A stretch of 64,000 bases of DNA from Escherichia phage Phi1 (EF437941), one strand, 5' to 3'. Counted from the first letter of the stretch, positions 6,756 to 35,676 are shown. Notes: generated by a model not told the origin, from the letters alone. Made by a program: numbers and translations.

Positions 6756-7229
6756 CTATCTTAATCTTTGTATGAATTGTTTCTTATACTTCTTCGTGAT
6801 TTCTTCTCGTGTATCAGCGTCGCAGTAATCGAAACCTTCTGCGTCCATAATAGCAACCATCTCCGCTCGTGTCAAGCGTGAAAATCGTTTTACTTTATCA
6901 ACGGCATATTGAGGATGTAAATGATTGTTGGTGTAGTCTCCTTTGATGTAATTAACATAGTTTGTAGCCCAAACAACGAAATCAGCACCTAAAGCACCAA
7001 CACCAAACCGTTTAAAGTCTCCGGTCAACGATCCTTCTAGGCGGTTGCAACACGAATGAAGCAATCCCCTTACGCGGCCTTGCCCTTTCCCTTCTAGATC
7101 GTGGTCGTGGTCAAGATGGTTTTTGCTCATATCCTCAAAAAGTGGCAATTGACAAAGGGGGCAAATGCCCCCCTGTTTTTCGAATAGTTCTTGTTTGTAC
7201 TCTTTAGCACTCTTAGCAGTCAGTAACAT
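6756..7229 (-). CDS. 49: recombination endonuclease VII (Holliday junction resolvase)
   Basis: Strong similarity to T4 gp49 as recalled: N-terminal Cys pair CPLC, HLDHDHDL, RGLLHSCCN; start at ATG after GGAGGGTGA. Confidence 0.9.
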   Translation of the reverse strand: MLLTAKSAKEYKQELFEKQGGICPLCQLPLFEDMSKNHLDHDHDLEGKGQGRVRGLLHSCCNRLEGSLTGDFKRFGVGALGADFVVWATNYVNYIKGDYTNNHLHPQYAVDKVKRFSRLTRAEMVAIMDAEGFDYCDADTREEITKKYKKQFIQRLR

Positions 7230-7253
7230 AAATTCACCCTCCAAAGAAGGTAT

Positions 7254-7535
7254 TTAACCATTAATCTTGTTTTTGACTACAAAGGATCGGAACTCATCAA
7301 AGCCACCGATATAATCACCATCATAGAAAATCTGCGGCATGGTGGCAATAACTTCTACCCCTGCGCGATCCTGAATATCGGCAATGATAGAATCAATCTT
7401 TACCGGGCGACCGTTTTCGTCCACACCATCATTAACCGGAATGTAGATGTAAGGGATCTTACGCGCTTCACAAAGGCGCTTTGCATTCTGGCAATACTTA
7501 CAGTTGTAACCTTCAAAACCAAAAATTTCTACCAT
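7254..7535 (-). CDS. nrdC: glutaredoxin / phage thioredoxin
   Basis: CKYC active-site motif and overall similarity to T4 NrdC; GAGG RBS before ATG at 7535. Confidence 0.8.
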   Translation of the reverse strand: MVEIFGFEGYNCKYCQNAKRLCEARKIPYIYIPVNDGVDENGRPVKIDSIIADIQDRAGVEVIATMPQIFYDGDYIGGFDEFRSFVVKNKING

Positions 7536-7543
7536 GTTATACC

Positions 7544-8356
7544 TCAATCTACGTTAGTTACATAAACTTCTTGCGTATCAGAAGACTTGCCACCTGAACG
7601 ATCTAGGCAATAGGTCTTATTCAACAAGACGCAGTTTAAATCATTCCGCTTGATAAAGTCAAGAAGATGATCATTTGCCTTTCCCTTATGATGCGTGACA
7701 TTACTTATACCAAACTGAAAACCACGCGCCATAATAGATTCTACCCACTGATAGAATTTAATCTCTTCCTCGTCACTCCAGAACTTATTATATTCCGCAG
7801 AAGTGATAAGGTACGGCGGGTCCAAATAAACGAAATCACCTGGCAAGATCTCGATCTCGTCATAACGACCGGACGTAAAACTGATTCGACCGTCTTTGTT
7901 TTCTTCCTTAAAATTCAGGACACGCTCTACCGCGTTTTCGTTAAAAGTCCGGCGACCAAAATTAGCATTAAATTCGCCCTTCCTGTTATGGCGGTTAATG
8001 TTGCTAAAACTGTGCTGAATCAGAACAAACAGAGATAGCGGATCTGGATTCTCATTATACTTCTTACGGAATGCCATGTAAGCATCTTTATCATCACGAG
8101 ACAAATCATTCTCGGCAATAATCCGCTTGATCGTAGAAACCGGATCAGGACACTCGTCAATCGCTTTGTACGCTTCAATTAAGCGGTGATCATAGTCATT
8201 AGCCAGCACATCCCCTTCGACGTACAGAGACACGCTCAAGCCGCCACAAAAGGCATCAACAAAGCGGTTATAGTGCTTAGGGAAATACTTACTAACACCT
8301 GGCAATAGCTTTTCCTTATTGCCAGTATAGGGAATTAAACCTAATGCTTTCTTCAT
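7544..8356 (-). CDS. dam: DNA adenine methyltransferase (alpha-class, DPPY)
   Basis: Motif I FVDAFCGGLSV and motif IV DPPY; overall similarity to T4 Dam as recalled. Confidence 0.9.
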   Translation of the reverse strand: MKKALGLIPYTGNKEKLLPGVSKYFPKHYNRFVDAFCGGLSVSLYVEGDVLANDYDHRLIEAYKAIDECPDPVSTIKRIIAENDLSRDDKDAYMAFRKKYNENPDPLSLFVLIQHSFSNINRHNRKGEFNANFGRRTFNENAVERVLNFKEENKDGRISFTSGRYDEIEILPGDFVYLDPPYLITSAEYNKFWSDEEEIKFYQWVESIMARGFQFGISNVTHHKGKANDHLLDFIKRNDLNCVLLNKTYCLDRSGGKSSDTQEVYVTNVD

Positions 8357-15702: not shown

Positions 15703-16101
15703 TTAAGCCAGTCGAGTGAGTTTATAAATTGTTTTAAAGCATAGAGCTTTGATATCGTCTAAAACACTCTGTAACGAGCTATCAACATCATTATAAATCT
15801 CACTAGCCATTTGCGTTAACTCTTGCAAATAGGCAATTTCGCTAATCTCCTTGCGGACGACCAACGTTGGCTGATAACGACCAGTGATCCCAATATTGGT
15901 TTCAGTGAAATTATCAACCAATTCTTGCATTTCAAGATAGAACTCTTCTAGAGCCTTATGTTTTGCATAAGACCCCGGACCAGTTACCCCAAAATGCGCA
16001 GAATGCATATAAGTAACACTCATCAGACATTCACCGATAAAGCGGTCAACTTTATTAGCTTTCCCATCTTCGGACGTCTTTCGAAAATCACTGAATTTCA
16101 T
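15703..16101 (-). CDS. ferritin-like / Dps-like protein (tentative)
   Basis: HFGVTGPGSYAKHKALEEFY resembles the Dps signature (HWNVKGPNF..H..FEE.Y) recalled from memory; start at the internal ATG (MKFSDF). Confidence 0.45.
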   Translation of the reverse strand: MKFSDFRKTSEDGKANKVDRFIGECLMSVTYMHSAHFGVTGPGSYAKHKALEEFYLEMQELVDNFTETNIGITGRYQPTLVVRKEISEIAYLQELTQMASEIYNDVDSSLQSVLDDIKALCFKTIYKLTRLA

Positions 16102-16390
16102 GTTCTCGATTCTCCATATTATGCAACATAACAAATTGTTGTGCGGCATATTCCCCCATAATAAAACACTGCTTAGAATCCATACATTTACTACGAGCAT
16201 ACATCTTCATAATATGGGCATGAAATTTCTGGCTGGTTTCAATGGAAGGAGATATTTTGTTTACATATACTATCATTGCACCGTCGAAATAATCAGTAAA
16301 GTCACCAGTTGGATCATATTGATCAGCACTAACGCTTCCGACCGCAGTAAAGCATATTGCCGCTGTTAGAGTTTTACGAATAAATGACAT
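16088..16390 (-). CDS. rI: RI-like lysis-inhibition antiholin (signal-anchor periplasmic protein)
   Basis: N-terminal hydrophobic signal; Cys-x6-Cys ... GEYAAQQ segment resembles T4 RI as recalled; adjacent to tk as in T4. Confidence 0.5.
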   Translation of the reverse strand: MSFIRKTLTAAICFTAVGSVSADQYDPTGDFTDYFDGAMIVYVNKISPSIETSQKFHAHIMKMYARSKCMDSKQCFIMGEYAAQQFVMLHNMENREHEIQ

Positions 16391-16458
16391 AAGTCATTCC
16401 CCCAGATTTAAAATATTCAGTTATATTTATAATCTGGGGCTTTATTTATGATTAACTC

Positions 16459-17055
16459 TTATTTGGTAGTACCGTCAATAAAATGTTTACGGCACACAGA
16501 AACATATTTATCCTCTGCACCAACTTCTATTTGAGCACCATCGCGAATAACATTACCATCTTTATCTACTCGAAGGACCATTGTTGCTTTCTTGCCACAA
16601 TGACAAATACCCTTCATTTCGACCAGCTTATCGGCAAATGCCATTAATGCCGCAGATCCTTCAAATAGATTGCCCTGAAAGTCAGTGCGAAGGCCATAGC
16701 ACAGTACAGGGATATTTGCATCATCAACAAGCGCACACAAGCCTAAAACATGCTCTTTAGTCATAAATTGGGCTTCGTCTACAAAAACTGCATCTGGACG
16801 CCATCGATCCGGTCTACGCTTACCTAACGATTCACGATAAACCAAGTCGAAAAGATCATCAGATTTAGTGAAGGTGATCGCTGGAGCACTTAGGCCAATT
16901 CGGGAAACGACTTCACTTTCTGAATCTCGATTATCAATCGCTGGCTTAAGAATTAATACTCGCATATCACGTTCGGTATAGTTATAAGCACTTTGTAATA
17001 GGGAAGTTGATTTGCCAGCGTTCATAGATGCATAGTAGAAATATAATTGCGCCAT
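16459..17055 (-). CDS. tk: thymidine kinase
   Basis: P-loop MNAGKST, FVDEAQF and a C-terminal Cys cluster typical of thymidine kinases. Confidence 0.95.
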   Translation of the reverse strand: MAQLYFYYASMNAGKSTSLLQSAYNYTERDMRVLILKPAIDNRDSESEVVSRIGLSAPAITFTKSDDLFDLVYRESLGKRRPDRWRPDAVFVDEAQFMTKEHVLGLCALVDDANIPVLCYGLRTDFQGNLFEGSAALMAFADKLVEMKGICHCGKKATMVLRVDKDGNVIRDGAQIEVGAEDKYVSVCRKHFIDGTTK

Positions 17056-17348
17056 TAATTAATCTCCAAAAATCCAGCAAGACCTAAACCGATATAAGTC
17101 CATATACCAATAAAAAAGATGTTAATGCTCATGGCAAGGATAAACCCTTTCAGCGTTTTGGGATACCCAACCCAATATTCCCGACCATCTTCTAACCGGA
17201 TCAACTTATTGCCTTGCGAGTCCATATCAACTACAACATGTTTATTTCGAGATTGCACTAGATATTGTTTTACAATCTCTACACCCGCCATAATAACAAT
17301 AACGAAAATAAAAGTCCACACAACAAGATTAATGATAGTCTCAAGCAT
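17055..17348 (-). CDS. hypothetical membrane protein
   Basis: Two hydrophobic helices; tiled ORF. Confidence 0.5.
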   Translation of the reverse strand: MLETIINLVVWTFIFVIVIMAGVEIVKQYLVQSRNKHVVVDMDSQGNKLIRLEDGREYWVGYPKTLKGFILAMSINIFFIGIWTYIGLGLAGFLEIN

Positions 17349-17391
17349 TTTCTATCACCTCCACCCAATCAGGTGTTTCCTGAAAGACTCC

Positions 17392-17583
17392 TTAGCCTTC
17401 ATGATGGTCGCAACCTTTATTGCTACAGTACATCCACCAATCCCACATTCCCCACGGTAAACGCTGCATATCGTCGTTACAACAAGTGAAGATGATAGGC
17501 CAACCACATCTAACACATCGGCAGTTTTCTTTCATGTGAGCGGTATTAGGCTTCTTCATAGATGACTCCAATATAATCGACAT
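17392..17583 (-). CDS. small Cys/Trp-rich protein (putative zinc-binding)
   Basis: Multiple CxxC-like pairs in 63 aa. Confidence 0.4.
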   Translation of the reverse strand: MSIILESSMKKPNTAHMKENCRCVRCGWPIIFTCCNDDMQRLPWGMWDWWMYCSNKGCDHHEG

Positions 17584-17786
17584 TTACATTTAGGGCAATG
17601 CGGTTCTTTAATATAATACCCGTCTGTCTTTGGAACACTAACAGGAGCGGTTTTTATATTATATTCAGTGAAACAACGAAAACAAGTTACGTTTTCTACA
17701 GACTGACGTTTCACCCAATCACCGGAATATAGATCATTTTTATTTGTCATATTCAACCACCACAATGTTAATGTCTGGAGTAGCAA
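17556..17786 (-). CDS. small Cys-rich protein (putative zinc ribbon)
   Basis: CFRCF ... CPKCKC pairs. Confidence 0.4.
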   Translation of the reverse strand: MLLQTLTLWWLNMTNKNDLYSGDWVKRQSVENVTCFRCFTEYNIKTAPVSVPKTDGYYIKEPHCPKCKCRLYWSHL

Positions 17787-18195
17787 TATTAATAATCTCT
17801 TCTACACATTCCCACTCAAGGCCACCGATACCGCAACCGATTTTAGGAATATAGAAAGGCTGTATAGCACCTTCAAAAACATCATTGAGAGACTCAAATC
17901 CTTTCAGGATAGCACCATATTCAGCATTTGGACCCGGTCGGAATTGGGTATAGAGATTCACCCCGCACCAGTTATAACCATTAACTTGATGCGTCCAGAT
18001 ACTAAACCCACCCAACTTTTCTACCTTACCGCGAGAAGTTTGCTTGTCAATCTCTAACGCTTGCGGGAACTCTTTCGCGATCTTTGCAGCAATACCAGCG
18101 CCCATAGTATGAAAACAATTACAACCATGAATTAAATGACCGTTTCCTTGTTTAAACAGGGCGATGAGATCGCCCTTTACAGTATCAATAATCAT
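17740..18195 (-). CDS. macro domain protein (ADP-ribose binding / hydrolase fold)
   Basis: GDLIALFKQG...HGCNC....GAGIA signature typical of macro domains. Confidence 0.75.
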   Translation of the reverse strand: MIIDTVKGDLIALFKQGNGHLIHGCNCFHTMGAGIAAKIAKEFPQALEIDKQTSRGKVEKLGGFSIWTHQVNGYNWCGVNLYTQFRPGPNAEYGAILKGFESLNDVFEGAIQPFYIPKIGCGIGGLEWECVEEIINIATPDINIVVVEYDK

Positions 18196-18210
18196 AATAT
18201 AAACCTCTCA

Positions 18211-18570
18211 TTAGTCACGGGAAGACAACCCAGCCATAAAACGGCTTAACAGTGTGTCGCGATAAGCAAAGCATAATTGCTTATCAGGGGCAGTATCACA
18301 CAGGTTGCGTTTTGTTTTAGCAAAGCTGGCAATACTCAGATCCCATGCTCGATTTTTTCGTTTTTCGTCTCGACCTTGTTTGTATGCTTCATCAAGTTCG
18401 AGCGCGATAAAATCACTACACATGTTATCATCATCACAGAAAGTTTTAATTATCTTTTTGTTGATCTCAAATCCTTTGTATTCGAACTTTGGATAAGGGC
18501 GCTCATTACTAGCAAGCGCACCAGCCGAGAACATCATAGCAATCATAGCAATTATTGTCAACTTTTTCAT
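18211..18570 (-). CDS. secreted/periplasmic hypothetical protein
   Basis: N-terminal signal peptide (MKKLTIIAMIAMMFSAGALA); 4 Cys. Confidence 0.5.
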   Translation of the reverse strand: MKKLTIIAMIAMMFSAGALASNERPYPKFEYKGFEINKKIIKTFCDDDNMCSDFIALELDEAYKQGRDEKRKNRAWDLSIASFAKTKRNLCDTAPDKQLCFAYRDTLLSRFMAGLSSRD

Positions 18571-18577
18571 ATATTCC

Positions 18578-19168
18578 TCAATAGCGTTTAGTCTTAAGAA
18601 TGCCTTTACTCTTTAGATGGTTAGCCTTTTTTAGTACGTCATCAGCATAACCTAATCCGGCTTTATAGTTCCATCCAGCATTGTAAGAAGCTAGCGCGAG
18701 TCGGATATTACCGTTTCGAATATCCAGCCAGTATGCTAACTCATCCATCGCGTAGAATGCAGAAACCTCGCGATTCATGATAAAGTTGATAGTCTGGCGA
18801 TCACTCATTTTAACACCACGCTTTGCATTTTTCGCTTTCACCGTTTTAAGGTAATTTTGAAATAATCCATAAGCATGATGATTTTTCTTTGGTGCTAAGT
18901 TTGCACCCGCGCTTGATTCTTGCCATGCGATACCCGCTAGGATGTGGCCTAAACCCTTTCCGTTATAGCGAATATTCGGATGGTACTTTTTCAACTTACC
19001 GCTTTTCTCGAATTGCTCGCCGTATTGATAGGCGAAATGTAAATTATCTAGTTGGTGTGCTGTAAAGTTGTCTATCGGCGCTTTTTTGATCGGTGCGCTA
19101 GTCGATGCGTGTGTAGCACCAACGGCTAGTGACAGACTCAATACTATCGCTTTTAGAACTTTTAACAT
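18578..19168 (-). CDS. lytic transglycosylase-like (SLT domain) protein with signal peptide
   Basis: Signal peptide then AGIAWQESS...YGLFQ, resembling the SLT catalytic Glu-Ser and GLMQ motifs. Confidence 0.6.
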   Translation of the reverse strand: MLKVLKAIVLSLSLAVGATHASTSAPIKKAPIDNFTAHQLDNLHFAYQYGEQFEKSGKLKKYHPNIRYNGKGLGHILAGIAWQESSAGANLAPKKNHHAYGLFQNYLKTVKAKNAKRGVKMSDRQTINFIMNREVSAFYAMDELAYWLDIRNGNIRLALASYNAGWNYKAGLGYADDVLKKANHLKSKGILKTKRY

Positions 19169-19254
19169 TAATTTCTCCTGTTTGGCTTAACTTTCTGATT
19201 CCATAATATAGCCCTATCACCAGAAAGTCAAGCATTATTTTTAACCAATTTCCA

Positions 19255-22417: not shown

Positions 22418-22807
22418 TTATTTTTGGTCTGGGTATTTGCTGTGTGGTAATTGTAGATGAGGACCATCTTTAAACGATACCCAATCCCCACCCCATTCAA
22501 CAGGAACACCCAATTCTCGACCAGCTTGTTTAAATGCATCAGCGATCATGCGGTAATATTTCATATTCCATGTATCTTTATCTTTCGGATACGCTACAAC
22601 GTCAACCGCGAAACCGTGAAGATGACGAGATTTCATAGTCTTAGATTTACCTTCCGCAACATATTTCTTTTGCGTTGCGAGACTACGCACACCTTCCGTA
22701 ATACCAAAATCGACCGGAGTCAGTTCTAACGCACGATGAACGACTTTTACCAGGTCTGGATGTACACCAACAAGCCGATCTTTGCTTCTTTGAGATAATT
22801 TAAACAT
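22418..22807 (-). CDS. endolysin, L-alanyl-D-glutamate peptidase (peptidase M15 family)
   Basis: SRHLHGFAVDV and WGGDWVSFKDGPHLQL motifs typical of Zn-dependent M15 phage endolysins. Confidence 0.8.
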   Translation of the reverse strand: MFKLSQRSKDRLVGVHPDLVKVVHRALELTPVDFGITEGVRSLATQKKYVAEGKSKTMKSRHLHGFAVDVVAYPKDKDTWNMKYYRMIADAFKQAGRELGVPVEWGGDWVSFKDGPHLQLPHSKYPDQK

Positions 22808-22835: not shown

Positions 22836-23027
22836 TTAGATTCCGGCGATCCTGCATAGAGTTCTTGTATTAGCACCAATAAGGATAGCATTAACGACAA
22901 CCATTCCCCAATCAACCCACGGATTATTATAAATGTTAAATCCGTTTGTTAGGCCAAATACAAGCATTCCAGTACACATACTCAGAGCAACAATCAACAT
23001 CACGGTAAAACCAAATGCAAATCTCAT
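22836..23027 (-). CDS. small membrane protein
   Basis: 63 aa, two hydrophobic helices; member of a tandem array. Confidence 0.45.
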   Translation of the reverse strand: MRFAFGFTVMLIVALSMCTGMLVFGLTNGFNIYNNPWVDWGMVVVNAILIGANTRTLCRIAGI

Positions 23028-33876: not shown

Positions 33877-35676
33877 ATGCTAATGTTTAATAACTCCGTT
33901 AAATGGTTTACCGGAATTGTAGAAAACAGGGAAGACCCATTAATGCTGGGGCGTGTTCAGGTTAGGATTCATGGTATACATCCCTCGCTATCCGCACACG
34001 GTGACATTCAAGGTCTTCCAACCGAAGATCTATTATGGATTACGCCAGTACAAGATATTACAAGCGCGGCGATCTCCGGTATAGGTCAAAGCCCTACTGG
34101 TATTGTTGAAGGTTCAATGGTATTTGGTTTGGCTTTAGATGAACGTTATTTAAACTGCGTTATTCTGGGTACTATTGCCGGACAATATACAGAGAAACCA
34201 CTCACTACAGAGGGTTTTTGCGACCCTTCTGGTGCATATCCTCGTTATATTGGTAATGATGTTAATATTCTTGCTCGTGGCGGTATTAACCCAGAAACCG
34301 GACAAACAACAAAACCTGATAGTGTCTATATTCGAGATGAAAACACTGGAGTTGCAGTAAATCCAGACGACGAGCCATTAGACCAAATTCCGGTTGATGA
34401 TAATCCTGATTTTACAATCGAAAAAATGCTGCGGGGCGATGAGGGATATCGCGAGAAATGGTATCTTGATTCAGAAGGATATCCGACAATAGGCATCGGG
34501 CATTTGATCATTTATAAGAAAACCAGTGATCTGGGTATTATCAATAATGAACTTTCTAAGCTGGTAGGGCGTGAAGTTACAAACGGAAGACTTACCGCCG
34601 AAGAAGTTAGTAAAGTATTTGCCGACGATATAGAAAAGACTCGTCGTGATATGCGCAAACATCCACGAATTGCACCTGTCTATAATAAATGTAATGCCTC
34701 ACGTCGTATGGCATTAGAAAATATGGCGTTTCAAATGGGTGTTGGTGGATTGGGTAAATTTAAGAATAGTCTTGCTGCGATGTTAGCGGAAGAATGGAAA
34801 CAAGCCTATGATGGATTACGTCAATCGGTATGGGCTAACCAAACTCCAGGACGCTCCAGCCGTGTTTCTAAAATTATTTTAACTGGTAACTTAGAATCAT
34901 ATGGCGTAATTGCTCCAAAGAAAGAGGAATCAATTTCTGATGATCCGCGAGCACGTTTGAGAAATGCCCGTATTGCTGCCTATAAGACGCAGAGAGCAGA
35001 AGAAGACCCAGAAGCACCGTTTACCCCACAAGACACACGAATCATGTTTAAAGAGCCTAAGAGTTCGTATTCCGCAAGGTATCCATATAACCATGTGTAC
35101 GAGTCAGAGAGCGGTCATATTATCGAGATTGATGATACTCCTTCTCATGAGCGATATCATCGTAAACATCCTTCGGGTACATTTGAAGAAACCAGACCGG
35201 ACGGAACGAGGGTAGAAAAGATTGAAGGTGATGATTATCTAATCGTTAAACAAGGCAGGAAAGTAAACGTTAAGGGTAATTTGCAAGTTGTTGTTGAAGG
35301 TGACGCGCAAGTTTATTATATGGGTAATGTGATGCAAACCGTTGATGGTAACGTCACTGAATTTATTCGTGGTAATGTTAATCAGACCGTTGAGGGTACA
35401 GCTAATATGCATGTTGTAGGTGATGTTACCGCTCAGCTTGACGCTAATTTAACGGCTAATGTCAAGGGTAATGCTGAATTAATGATCGAGGGTAACACTA
35501 CAGAGACAATTAAAGGTAACTATGATTTAACCGTTGAGGGTAATTTTAATATGACCGTCAATGGCACTAAATCAGATCAGGTTAATGGTGACTGGTCCCG
35601 TAATTGTGGTGCAAGCGTTAAAGATATTGCATCTGGTACAGTTAAAATTGATGGTAGCCGTATTGATCTTGGGTGA
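33877..35676 (+). CDS. 5: baseplate hub and tail lysozyme gp5
   Basis: OB-fold N-terminus, lysozyme motif (EGYPTIGIGHLI) and C-terminal VxGxxxxx beta-helix repeats. Confidence 0.9.
   Translation: MLMFNNSVKWFTGIVENREDPLMLGRVQVRIHGIHPSLSAHGDIQGLPTEDLLWITPVQDITSAAISGIGQSPTGIVEGSMVFGLALDERYLNCVILGTIAGQYTEKPLTTEGFCDPSGAYPRYIGNDVNILARGGINPETGQTTKPDSVYIRDENTGVAVNPDDEPLDQIPVDDNPDFTIEKMLRGDEGYREKWYLDSEGYPTIGIGHLIIYKKTSDLGIINNELSKLVGREVTNGRLTAEEVSKVFADDIEKTRRDMRKHPRIAPVYNKCNASRRMALENMAFQMGVGGLGKFKNSLAAMLAEEWKQAYDGLRQSVWANQTPGRSSRVSKIILTGNLESYGVIAPKKEESISDDPRARLRNARIAAYKTQRAEEDPEAPFTPQDTRIMFKEPKSSYSARYPYNHVYESESGHIIEIDDTPSHERYHRKHPSGTFEETRPDGTRVEKIEGDDYLIVKQGRKVNVKGNLQVVVEGDAQVYYMGNVMQTVDGNVTEFIRGNVNQTVEGTANMHVVGDVTAQLDANLTANVKGNAELMIEGNTTETIKGNYDLTVEGNFNMTVNGTKSDQVNGDWSRNCGASVKDIASGTVKIDGSRIDLG

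Follow-up and report, generated by a model that had tools for sequence, protein, structure and literature searches.

The mechanism of lysis inhibition through the antiholin RI and the holin T is established for bacteriophage T4. In the same region of T4 as rI lie two further genes, vs and vs.1, which the T4 record of 1986 lists merely as open reading frame (ORF) 60.9 and ORF 61.4. The name vs was attached to ORF 60.9 after that record. The label 'valyl-tRNA synthetase modifier' is found on every record of this gene that we examined, and the corresponding Pfam family is named ValRS_modifier, after valyl-tRNA synthetase (ValRS). For vs.1, Nolan et al. reported in 2006 that six orthologs match the SLT domain of lytic transglycosylases, citing earlier PSI-BLAST work on T4 (PMC1524935). 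Here we analyze the corresponding genes in a 64,000-nucleotide stretch of DNA from Escherichia phage Phi1 (EF437941; the whole stretch is called the window below), where they lie between positions 16088 and 19168 on the minus strand.

rI is a textbook gene, and for vs.1 the SLT similarity has been known since the 2006 report. The value of the present analysis lies in a conflict over the topology of Vs that its annotation ignores. vs is a 50-year-old T4 gene and the strongest T4 fitness gene in minimal medium; its product has the hallmarks of an exported protein, and it sits beside the gene for a predicted periplasmic, wall-cleaving enzyme. The best overall explanation of the region, and one that we consider reasonably likely, is that RI is an antiholin, that Vs.1 is an early-exported transglycosylase, and that Vs acts in the envelope, probably together with Vs.1.

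The window belongs to a Krischvirus, a T4-type coliphage resembling RB49, JSE and GEC-3S, and is 97-98% identical in DNA to Krischvirus genomes in which rI, vs and vs.1 are annotated. Of the 57 phage genomes matched by a 4.3-kb query around the locus (90-99% identity), nearly all were Krischvirus, and the Krischvirus matches (RB49, JSE, GEC-3S and relatives) have E. coli or Shigella as hosts. All genes of the region are on the minus strand, including the three ORFs of interest at 16088..16390, 18211..18570 and 18578..19168. The names given to these ORFs in the JSE and GEC-3S records are rI, vs ('valyl-tRNA synthetase modifier'), and vs.1 or hypothetical. The gene order in both is rI.-1, rI, tk, three small ORFs, tk.4, vs, vs.1, regB; T4 has the same order, plus rI.1 between rI and tk. 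Vs was 100% identical to the RB49 protein and Vs.1 was 100% identical to the GEC-3S protein. No NCBIfam model matched RI, Vs or Vs.1. We regard the three ORFs as almost certainly orthologs of T4 rI, vs and vs.1; these genes were already known and annotated, and most of our analysis confirms the existing annotation.

The predicted compartment of Vs

vs (18211..18570, minus strand), which carries the ValRS-modifier annotation, encodes a predicted exported, helical protein of 119 amino acids with four cysteines. The protein matched phrog_1256 over residues 1-118 (E 1.8e-33) and was 27% identical to T4 Vs over its full length, with all four cysteines aligned. A protein cluster 97% identical to it carries PF26829. 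The original prediction, made from the sequence without knowledge of its origin, had described this ORF as a small secreted cysteine-containing protein with an RI-like CSDF segment. The protein is indeed small, predicted to be exported, and contains cysteines (four), and CSDF is literally present. The likeness to RI was not borne out, and the prediction did not recognize the ORF as the ortholog of T4 vs. The idea that Vs is a diverged RI paralog, suggested by CSDF and by the shared look of a cysteine loop followed by a helix, was rejected: BLASTP gave no alignment, and an hhalign comparison of the mature domains of the two families gave a probability of 0.2% (E 0.28), so that the resemblance is one of chance.

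Signal peptides were called by a home-made heuristic rather than SignalP, on the basis of a charged n-region, a hydrophobic core, and small residues at positions -3 and -1. The N-termini of RI, Vs and Vs.1 all fit this pattern, with a positive n-region and no acidic residue in the hydrophobic core. For Vs, the predicted Sec signal peptide is MKKLTIIAMIAMMFSAGALA, with cleavage before SN (18511..18570, minus strand), and that of Vs.1 is MLKVLKAIVLSLSLAVGATHA, with cleavage before ST (19106..19168, minus strand). The predicted N-terminal segment of RI, with a possible cleavage site before DQ, is MSFIRKTLTAAICFTAVGSVSA. Because the call itself is heuristic, its conservation across homologs weighs more. 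Signal-peptide-like N-termini were found in 58/61 homologs of Vs and 108/120 homologs of Vs.1, and the exceptions were visibly truncated or mis-started. T4 Vs and T4 Vs.1 also have predicted signal peptides.

The Vs family is small and was found only in phages. There were 64 clusters at 90% identity, all of them PF26829. When 1.84 billion representatives were searched exhaustively with HMMER, we recovered only 27 Vs clusters at 50% identity, all single-domain proteins of 77-134 amino acids, and no non-phage relatives or domain fusions among those representatives. Conserved features are the signal peptide, two pairs of cysteines (invariant or at least 90% conserved), a glycine after helix 2, and a C-terminal G-L; the most distant members from the same search retain both the signal peptide and the four cysteines. 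In one lineage of T4-like contigs from IMG/VR (L014, L026, L027, L028 and L035; positions about 7498-7864), the signal peptide of Vs ends in the lipobox LSGC followed by lysine (MKKLFVLLVVFALSGC, then K), which predicts that these members are lipoproteins. The AlphaFold2 (AF2) model of Vs contains four helices, with a mean predicted local distance difference test score (pLDDT) of 82, and as modeled Vs would be a four-helix bundle in which two disulfides are probably stabilizing. Vs was also considered as a known type of lysozyme or transglycosylase inhibitor, either Spackle-like or saposin-like, and this was rejected after finding no significant match in sequence or to structures in the PDB. 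Saposin A and an immunity protein of a type VI secretion system came up as weak matches, far below significance, and were not used.

These features are in conflict with the annotation. The function annotated for T4 Vs needs a cytoplasmic protein, one that can reach ValRS, whereas the signal peptide, the lipobox and the four cysteines in two pairs predict the opposite compartment, oxidizing and extracytoplasmic. The conflict is one between an annotation and a prediction, and these observations do not prove that Vs is mis-annotated. We nevertheless consider it very probable that Vs is exported.

Earlier work on T4 Vs can be set beside this prediction. The calculated mass is 13.1 kDa for the T4 precursor and 11.0 kDa for the predicted mature protein, and the purified ValRS-modifying factor of T4 is said to be about 10 kDa. 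The similarity of the last two values fits the assignment of the factor to this ORF, and it also fits cleavage. Full-length T4 Vs with an N-terminal His tag, expressed in the cytoplasm, was insoluble and formed inclusion bodies (PMC8076793). Of all T4 genes, vs was the most depleted in M9-glucose relative to LB, and a clean knockout confirmed the defect, with T4 delta-vs plating poorly on M9-glucose but not on LB; the role of ValRS modification is called unknown in the same preprint (bioRxiv 10.1101/2025.11.20.689424). Our literature searches found no study of the localization of Vs, none of the function of Vs.1, and nothing of relevance on the classical ValRS-modifying factor.

Vs.1 and its linkage to vs

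Family-1 lytic transglycosylases are recognized by three classical motifs, of the types WQES, GxFQ and SYNAG. vs.1 (18578..19168, minus strand) encodes a 196-amino-acid protein predicted to be an exported member of this family with an SLT domain. The original prediction of a signal peptide and SLT-type motifs in this ORF was upheld. The protein matched Pfam SLT (PF01464) over residues 76-167 (25.6 bits, gathering score 21.3; E 9.6e-6) and phrog_600 (E 1.3e-59). The strings AWQESS and YGLFQ are present as predicted, and an additional SLT motif, ASYNAGW, is also there; YGLFQ is of the GLMQ type, and SYNAG of the AYNxG type. The predicted catalytic acid is Glu84, within AWQESS, whose GAA codon (18917..18919, minus strand) was checked. 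The positions that are invariant among six diverse sequences, from six families of phages, include E84 (WQES), G101 and Q104 (GxFQ), and Y162, N163 and G165 (SYNAG). Among 77 Vs.1 sequences, Glu84, the glycine of GxFQ, the tyrosine and glycine of SYNAG, W147 and Q39 are invariant, and Q104 is no longer so.

We compared the Vs.1 family with solved structures by sequence and by predicted fold. The family profile matched EtgA, from the type III secretion system of enteropathogenic E. coli (E 6.8e-5), and, weakly, goose-type lysozymes. Opposite Glu84 in these alignments stood the catalytic-glutamate motifs, AIAWNESK in EtgA and SRES in goose lysozyme. The two findings that could have spoken against the original prediction, lack of a signal peptide and lack of an SLT catalytic glutamate on alignment, were not made; both elements are there by prediction and alignment, respectively. 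The AF2 model of mature Vs.1 has a pLDDT of 91.3 and a predicted template modeling (pTM) score of 0.87. The top 19 Foldseek matches to it were MltD, Slt, Slt70, Cj0843 and other lytic transglycosylases, with one GH23 chitinase; their probabilities were 0.82-1.0, with E-values of only 8e-3 to 0.5 and template modeling (TM) scores of 0.41-0.55. For the best of them (MltD, Slt, Slt70, Cj0843 and related enzymes), the probability was about 1 and the TM score only 0.45-0.55. The matches agree with a lysozyme-like, all-alpha fold. The fold, the motifs and the predicted export signal support the reading of Vs.1 as an exported SLT-type enzyme, whose activity and purpose are inferred.

A sigma-70-type early promoter-like site, TTGACT-17-TATTAT (10/12 match), is located between regB and vs.1 (19203..19231, minus strand). 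Promoter-like sites in the region are no more numerous than in shuffled sequences, and the argument for this one is positional: it occupies the same position as a promoter annotated in the GEC-3S record. Vs.1 would be a family-1 lytic transglycosylase, soluble and about 20 kDa in size, that is expressed from an early sigma-70 promoter and exported by Sec, and its Glu84 would cleave the glycan strands of peptidoglycan in the periplasm of the infected cell.

The original prediction considered a periplasmic transglycosylase outside the virion and endolysin genes to be unusual. This was not the case. Using tblastn, we found vs.1 homologs in 2,084 phage records, including those of Straboviridae, Ackermannviridae (Vi01, Kuja), Ounavirinae (Sf18) and others, and the SLT similarity had been published (PMC1524935). 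In the Ounavirinae phage Sf18, the homolog adjoins rIIA/rIIB and the spanins. Several Salmonella and Dickeya Ackermannviridae records name homologs with SLT motifs 'RegB endoribonuclease', which is apparently a misannotation taken over from the neighboring gene of T4. In phages that lack vs, genes beside the vs.1 homolog encode very small proteins predicted to span the membrane once or twice (L006, Vibrio phage Kuja, 3654-4707; L038, 5518-5688; L039, 4749-4997).

In the window, vs.1 and vs are closely joined. The TGA that ends vs.1 falls within the Shine-Dalgarno sequence of vs, TATTGAGGAATATATG (junction 18571..18580, minus strand), with a spacer of 7 nt between the genes. We examined 33 loci from GenBank and from IMG/VR T4-like contigs that contain a Vs homolog. 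In 33/33, the start of vs is between -8 and +7 nt from the stop of vs.1, and the two genes overlap in 24. rI is 1.0-4.0 kb downstream in every locus. This arrangement indicates probable translational coupling. Vs would be translated directly after Vs.1 and exported, and in one lineage lipid-anchored. The pair is also kept together in the loci examined from Acinetobacter phages, within which no homolog of regB, tk or tk.4 was detected; there, two further exported proteins and rI follow vs.1-vs within 1.1 kb. In two very distant metagenomic contigs, genes for SLT, ValRS_modifier and Antiholin proteins lie within 4 kb of one another, and DUF5856 (rI.-1) is present in one of the two.

Other small exported proteins are encoded nearby. 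In Acinetobacter phage fHyAci03 (L007), gp137 and gp136 (6779-7503), located between vs and rI, are small proteins that begin with a signal peptide or a signal anchor, and two proteins of the same kind are found between vs and rI in L041 (2491-2883 and 3406-3702). In this stretch each of the two loci encodes five exported proteins, including those of vs.1, vs and rI; the five genes are consecutive in L007, and a macro-domain gene interrupts them in L041. In Aeromonas phage phiAS4, the slot of vs, before tk.4, is taken by ORF175 (L037, 6072-6512), an unrelated 146-amino-acid predicted lipoprotein with the lipobox IYGC. The vs slot seems to favor exported proteins.

Possible roles of Vs and Vs.1

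Vs most likely acts in the envelope as a modulator or tether, either jointly with Vs.1 or upon it, and not on cytoplasmic ValRS. That Vs and Vs.1 are functional partners is a tentative proposal, drawn from gene linkage, and could well be wrong. Our best guess is that the pair would carry out controlled remodeling or maintenance of the sacculus during infection, an activity that would matter most in slow-growing cells. A fuller version of this proposal is that the Vs family as a whole is periplasmic, lipid-anchored in some members, and acts as a partner or regulator of Vs.1; that the pair is a module for peptidoglycan remodeling; and that the link to ValRS stems either from the genetic vs locus having later been assigned wrongly to ORF 60.9 or from binding that occurs only once cells are broken. 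Taken with all its parts, this version is possible and on the doubtful side. If the module exists, its loss would explain the defect of T4 delta-vs on minimal medium.

Several observations weigh against a Vs-Vs.1 module in the envelope. The prediction that Vs is exported was built from a home-made heuristic together with conservation. Marchin and colleagues, using classical genetics and biochemistry, are reported to have tied the T4 vs locus to the valyl-tRNA synthetase of infected cells. Given the strong synteny among T4-like genomes, adjacency by itself says little about partnership; the adjacency of regB and vs.1 is equally conserved in enterobacterial phages, and in contig L040 there are three genes between vs.1 and vs. 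Vs.1 is found without Vs in Aeromonas and Vibrio T4-like phages, in Ackermannviridae and in Ounavirinae. In a few phages, vs is split or truncated beside an intact vs.1 (L028 and vB_EcoM_005); in L028, a frameshift seems to have divided it into two ORFs. Because vs can be broken beside an intact vs.1, and because T4 delta-vs is viable on LB, Vs is not an obligatory antidote to Vs.1. We considered an obligatory immunity protein as a candidate role for Vs and rejected it on these grounds and because of the phages that have only Vs.1.

An alternative is that Vs is a cytoplasmic factor that binds and stabilizes host ValRS, with an N-terminus that is not used for export or with only part of the pool exported, in which case the synteny would be without functional meaning and Vs.1 would act alone. 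This alternative agrees with the annotation on every record and with the family name. It also agrees with the M9-specific defect of T4 delta-vs, which fits a role in translation, as the authors of the preprint read it, and with the many phages that carry Vs.1 and no Vs. The correspondence between the 11.0-kDa protein and the reported factor supports the assignment of the ORF as well, though it implies cleavage. However, a Sec-type signal peptide in 58/61 members, including the most distant, and a lipoprotein signal in one lineage are hard to reconcile with a cytoplasmic protein, as are four invariant or nearly invariant cysteines in the reducing cytoplasm. That the 1986 record has only 'ORF 60.9', with the name vs coming later, and that full-length Vs was insoluble when expressed in the cytoplasm (PMC8076793) also count against it. 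On balance, we judge a cytoplasmic role of this kind to be rather unlikely.

Two other proposals place the proteins at the wall and give them a different purpose. Vs.1, with or without Vs, could be an accessory lysis enzyme that weakens the sacculus beforehand or contributes to dissolving it, assisting the endolysin when infection ends, in which case the proximity of rI would reflect a module for lysis timing. The same lytic transglycosylase fold is used by many endolysins, vs.1 is within 1-4 kb of rI in all loci, and the Ounavirinae homolog, called 'putative lysin' in some records, has rIIA/rIIB on one side and the spanins on the other. Nolan et al. also put forward 'some role in cell lysis' (PMC1524935). 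The timing fits poorly, since a cleavable signal peptide and an early promoter would put Vs.1 at the wall long before lysis, yet the cells stay intact. In addition, the phage has its own endolysin, an M15-type peptidase rather than a T4 e-type lysozyme (22418-22807, minus strand; phrog_465, E 2e-68), with a gene for a 63-amino-acid membrane protein just upstream of it (22836-23027, minus strand; phrog_15016). The endolysin of T4 is likewise encoded by a separate gene, e, and to our knowledge vs.1 was never found in screens for lysis-defective T4. We consider an accessory lysis enzyme improbable. The pair could instead serve superinfection exclusion or resistance to lysis from without, with Vs blocking the tail lysozyme of incoming phages in the manner of Spackle and Vs.1 altering the peptidoglycan. 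Like Spackle, Vs is small, helical and early, and is predicted to be exported and to contain disulfides, and its gene is linked to rI, which responds to superinfection. We give little credence to this proposal: Vs resembles neither Spackle nor any PDB lysozyme inhibitor in sequence or fold, the tight coupling of Vs to the phage's own transglycosylase is left unexplained, and the plaque defect of T4 delta-vs on M9 was seen in single-phage plating.

If Vs acts in the envelope, as we favor, the ValRS story needs to be re-examined, and the annotation of hundreds of genomes is misleading. The number of genomes with the label 'valyl-tRNA synthetase modifier' would be about 1,150 if our two tblastn counts (796 and 353) barely overlap. 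Action of Vs in the envelope would also make early, non-lytic remodeling of peptidoglycan by virulent phages a testable proposition.

RI, neighboring genes and comparison with known systems

rI (16088..16390, minus strand) encodes a 100-amino-acid antiholin, a regulator of lysis inhibition. The original prediction of an RI-like antiholin beside tk was well founded. RI matched Pfam PF24205 (Antiholin) over residues 4-97 (E 2e-23; 82.4 bits, cut-off 27) and phrog_1246, 'lysis inhibition' (E 4e-26). RI aligned to residues 13-70 of the T4 RI crystal structures 6PSK and 6PSH with both cysteines matched, and identity to T4 RI was about 25% (53 residues). The predicted GEYAAQQ string is present, and the spacing of the cysteines, given in that prediction as Cys-x6-Cys, is actually C-x5-C (CMDSKQC). 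In an alignment of 27 family members, both cysteines are at least 90% conserved and the F..G..VY motif is kept.

The N-terminal segment of RI (MSFIRKTLTAAICFTAVGSVSADQ; 16319..16390, minus strand) resembles a signal anchor or signal-anchor-release (SAR) domain. It is positively charged, and its hydrophobic region is weak and rich in T, A, G and S, with a best 9-residue Kyte-Doolittle mean of 2.03, the lowest among RI, Vs and Vs.1. These properties are consistent with a SAR domain, and a possible cleavage site between VSA and DQ is also present. By analogy to T4 RI, this N-terminus would behave as a SAR domain and, weakly hydrophobic as it is, take the antiholin to the periplasm. There, the disulfide-containing domain of RI would bind the periplasmic domain of holin T and delay lysis upon superinfection. 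The homology of RI to the antiholin is clear, and by that homology this phage would use the T4 mechanism.

The spacer between tk and rI is 68 nt and contains a predicted RNA hairpin (16400..16439, minus strand). Its minimum free energy is -20.8 kcal/mol (z -3.4), and 0/200 shuffled sequences were as stable. The loop side holds TATAAATA (16424-16431), the T4 late-promoter consensus, and the 3' arm abuts the rI Shine-Dalgarno sequence. By analogy with other genes of T4, early transcripts reading through from upstream would mask the rI ribosome-binding site, and late transcripts starting inside the hairpin would free it. The combination of hairpin and late-promoter motif suggests that translation of rI is specific to late transcripts.

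Some features of the neighboring genes were also noted. The mechanically called ORF of rI.-1 (DUF5856; 15703-16200, minus strand) is too long; the true start is probably an internal ATG (MKFSDFRK...) that overlaps the end of rI and is the start given in the JSE record. Two overlapping small ORFs (17392-17583 and 17556-17786, minus strand) belong to separate 'phage zinc-binding domain' families of Pfam (PF23895 and PF23903; E about 1e-23), and their starts differ from the JSE annotation. The ortholog of T4 Tk.4 is a macro-domain protein (Pfam Macro; 17740-18195, minus strand). A macro-domain gene is also found near the vs.1 homologs of Ackermannviridae (Kuja) and Ounavirinae (Sf18). T4 Tk.4 itself was named AdfM, an anti-DarTG2 factor, in a preprint from 2025. 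Near position 34000 of the window, GC skew changes sign from negative to positive, marking a switch of the transcribed strand.

Each of the three proteins shares features with its T4 counterpart. T4 RI is of the same family and length and has a C-x5-C pair followed by a helix, and the N-terminus of RI may be SAR-like as that of T4 RI is; T4 rI also has the same neighbors, with rI.-1/DUF5856 downstream and tk upstream. The window differs from T4 in lacking rI.1 in the spacer between rI and tk, and in having a hairpin with a late-promoter motif directly upstream of rI. T4 Vs (PF26829, phrog_1256) and Vs have in common a C-terminal GLS-R motif and their genomic position. T4 Vs.1 (ORF 61.4) is 53% identical to Vs.1, has a signal peptide and all motifs, and is encoded in the same place between regB and vs; in the Krischvirus protein, the linker that follows the signal peptide is 13 residues longer and modeled with low confidence.

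Vs can also be compared with the proteins Ivy, PliC/MliC and PliG, which inhibit muramidases in the periplasm, and with T4 Spackle, all of them small and exported as Vs is predicted to be; no similarity to them was detected in sequence or fold. The PliC/MliC family alternates between soluble and lipoprotein forms, and the predicted alternation of Vs between these forms is parallel.

Vs.1 resembles the small 'specialized' transglycosylases of secretion systems (EtgA, IagB and VirB1 type) more closely than it resembles an endolysin. The enzymes of the EtgA/IagB/IpgF/VirB1 type, along with Slt70 and MltD, have ES, GxxQ and YNxG motifs as Vs.1 does, and those of the former type are also small, Sec-exported and single-domain. 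Among solved structures, the nearest to Vs.1 is EtgA by sequence, and the nearest by fold are MltD, Slt and Slt70. Compared with these enzymes, Vs.1 has an extra conserved N-terminal helix (Q39..A46-Y47..G50) outside the Pfam domain, and its gene belongs to lytic phages, which have no machine to place across the envelope. The control of EtgA by its partner EscI provides a precedent for a partner of Vs.1 of the Vs type.

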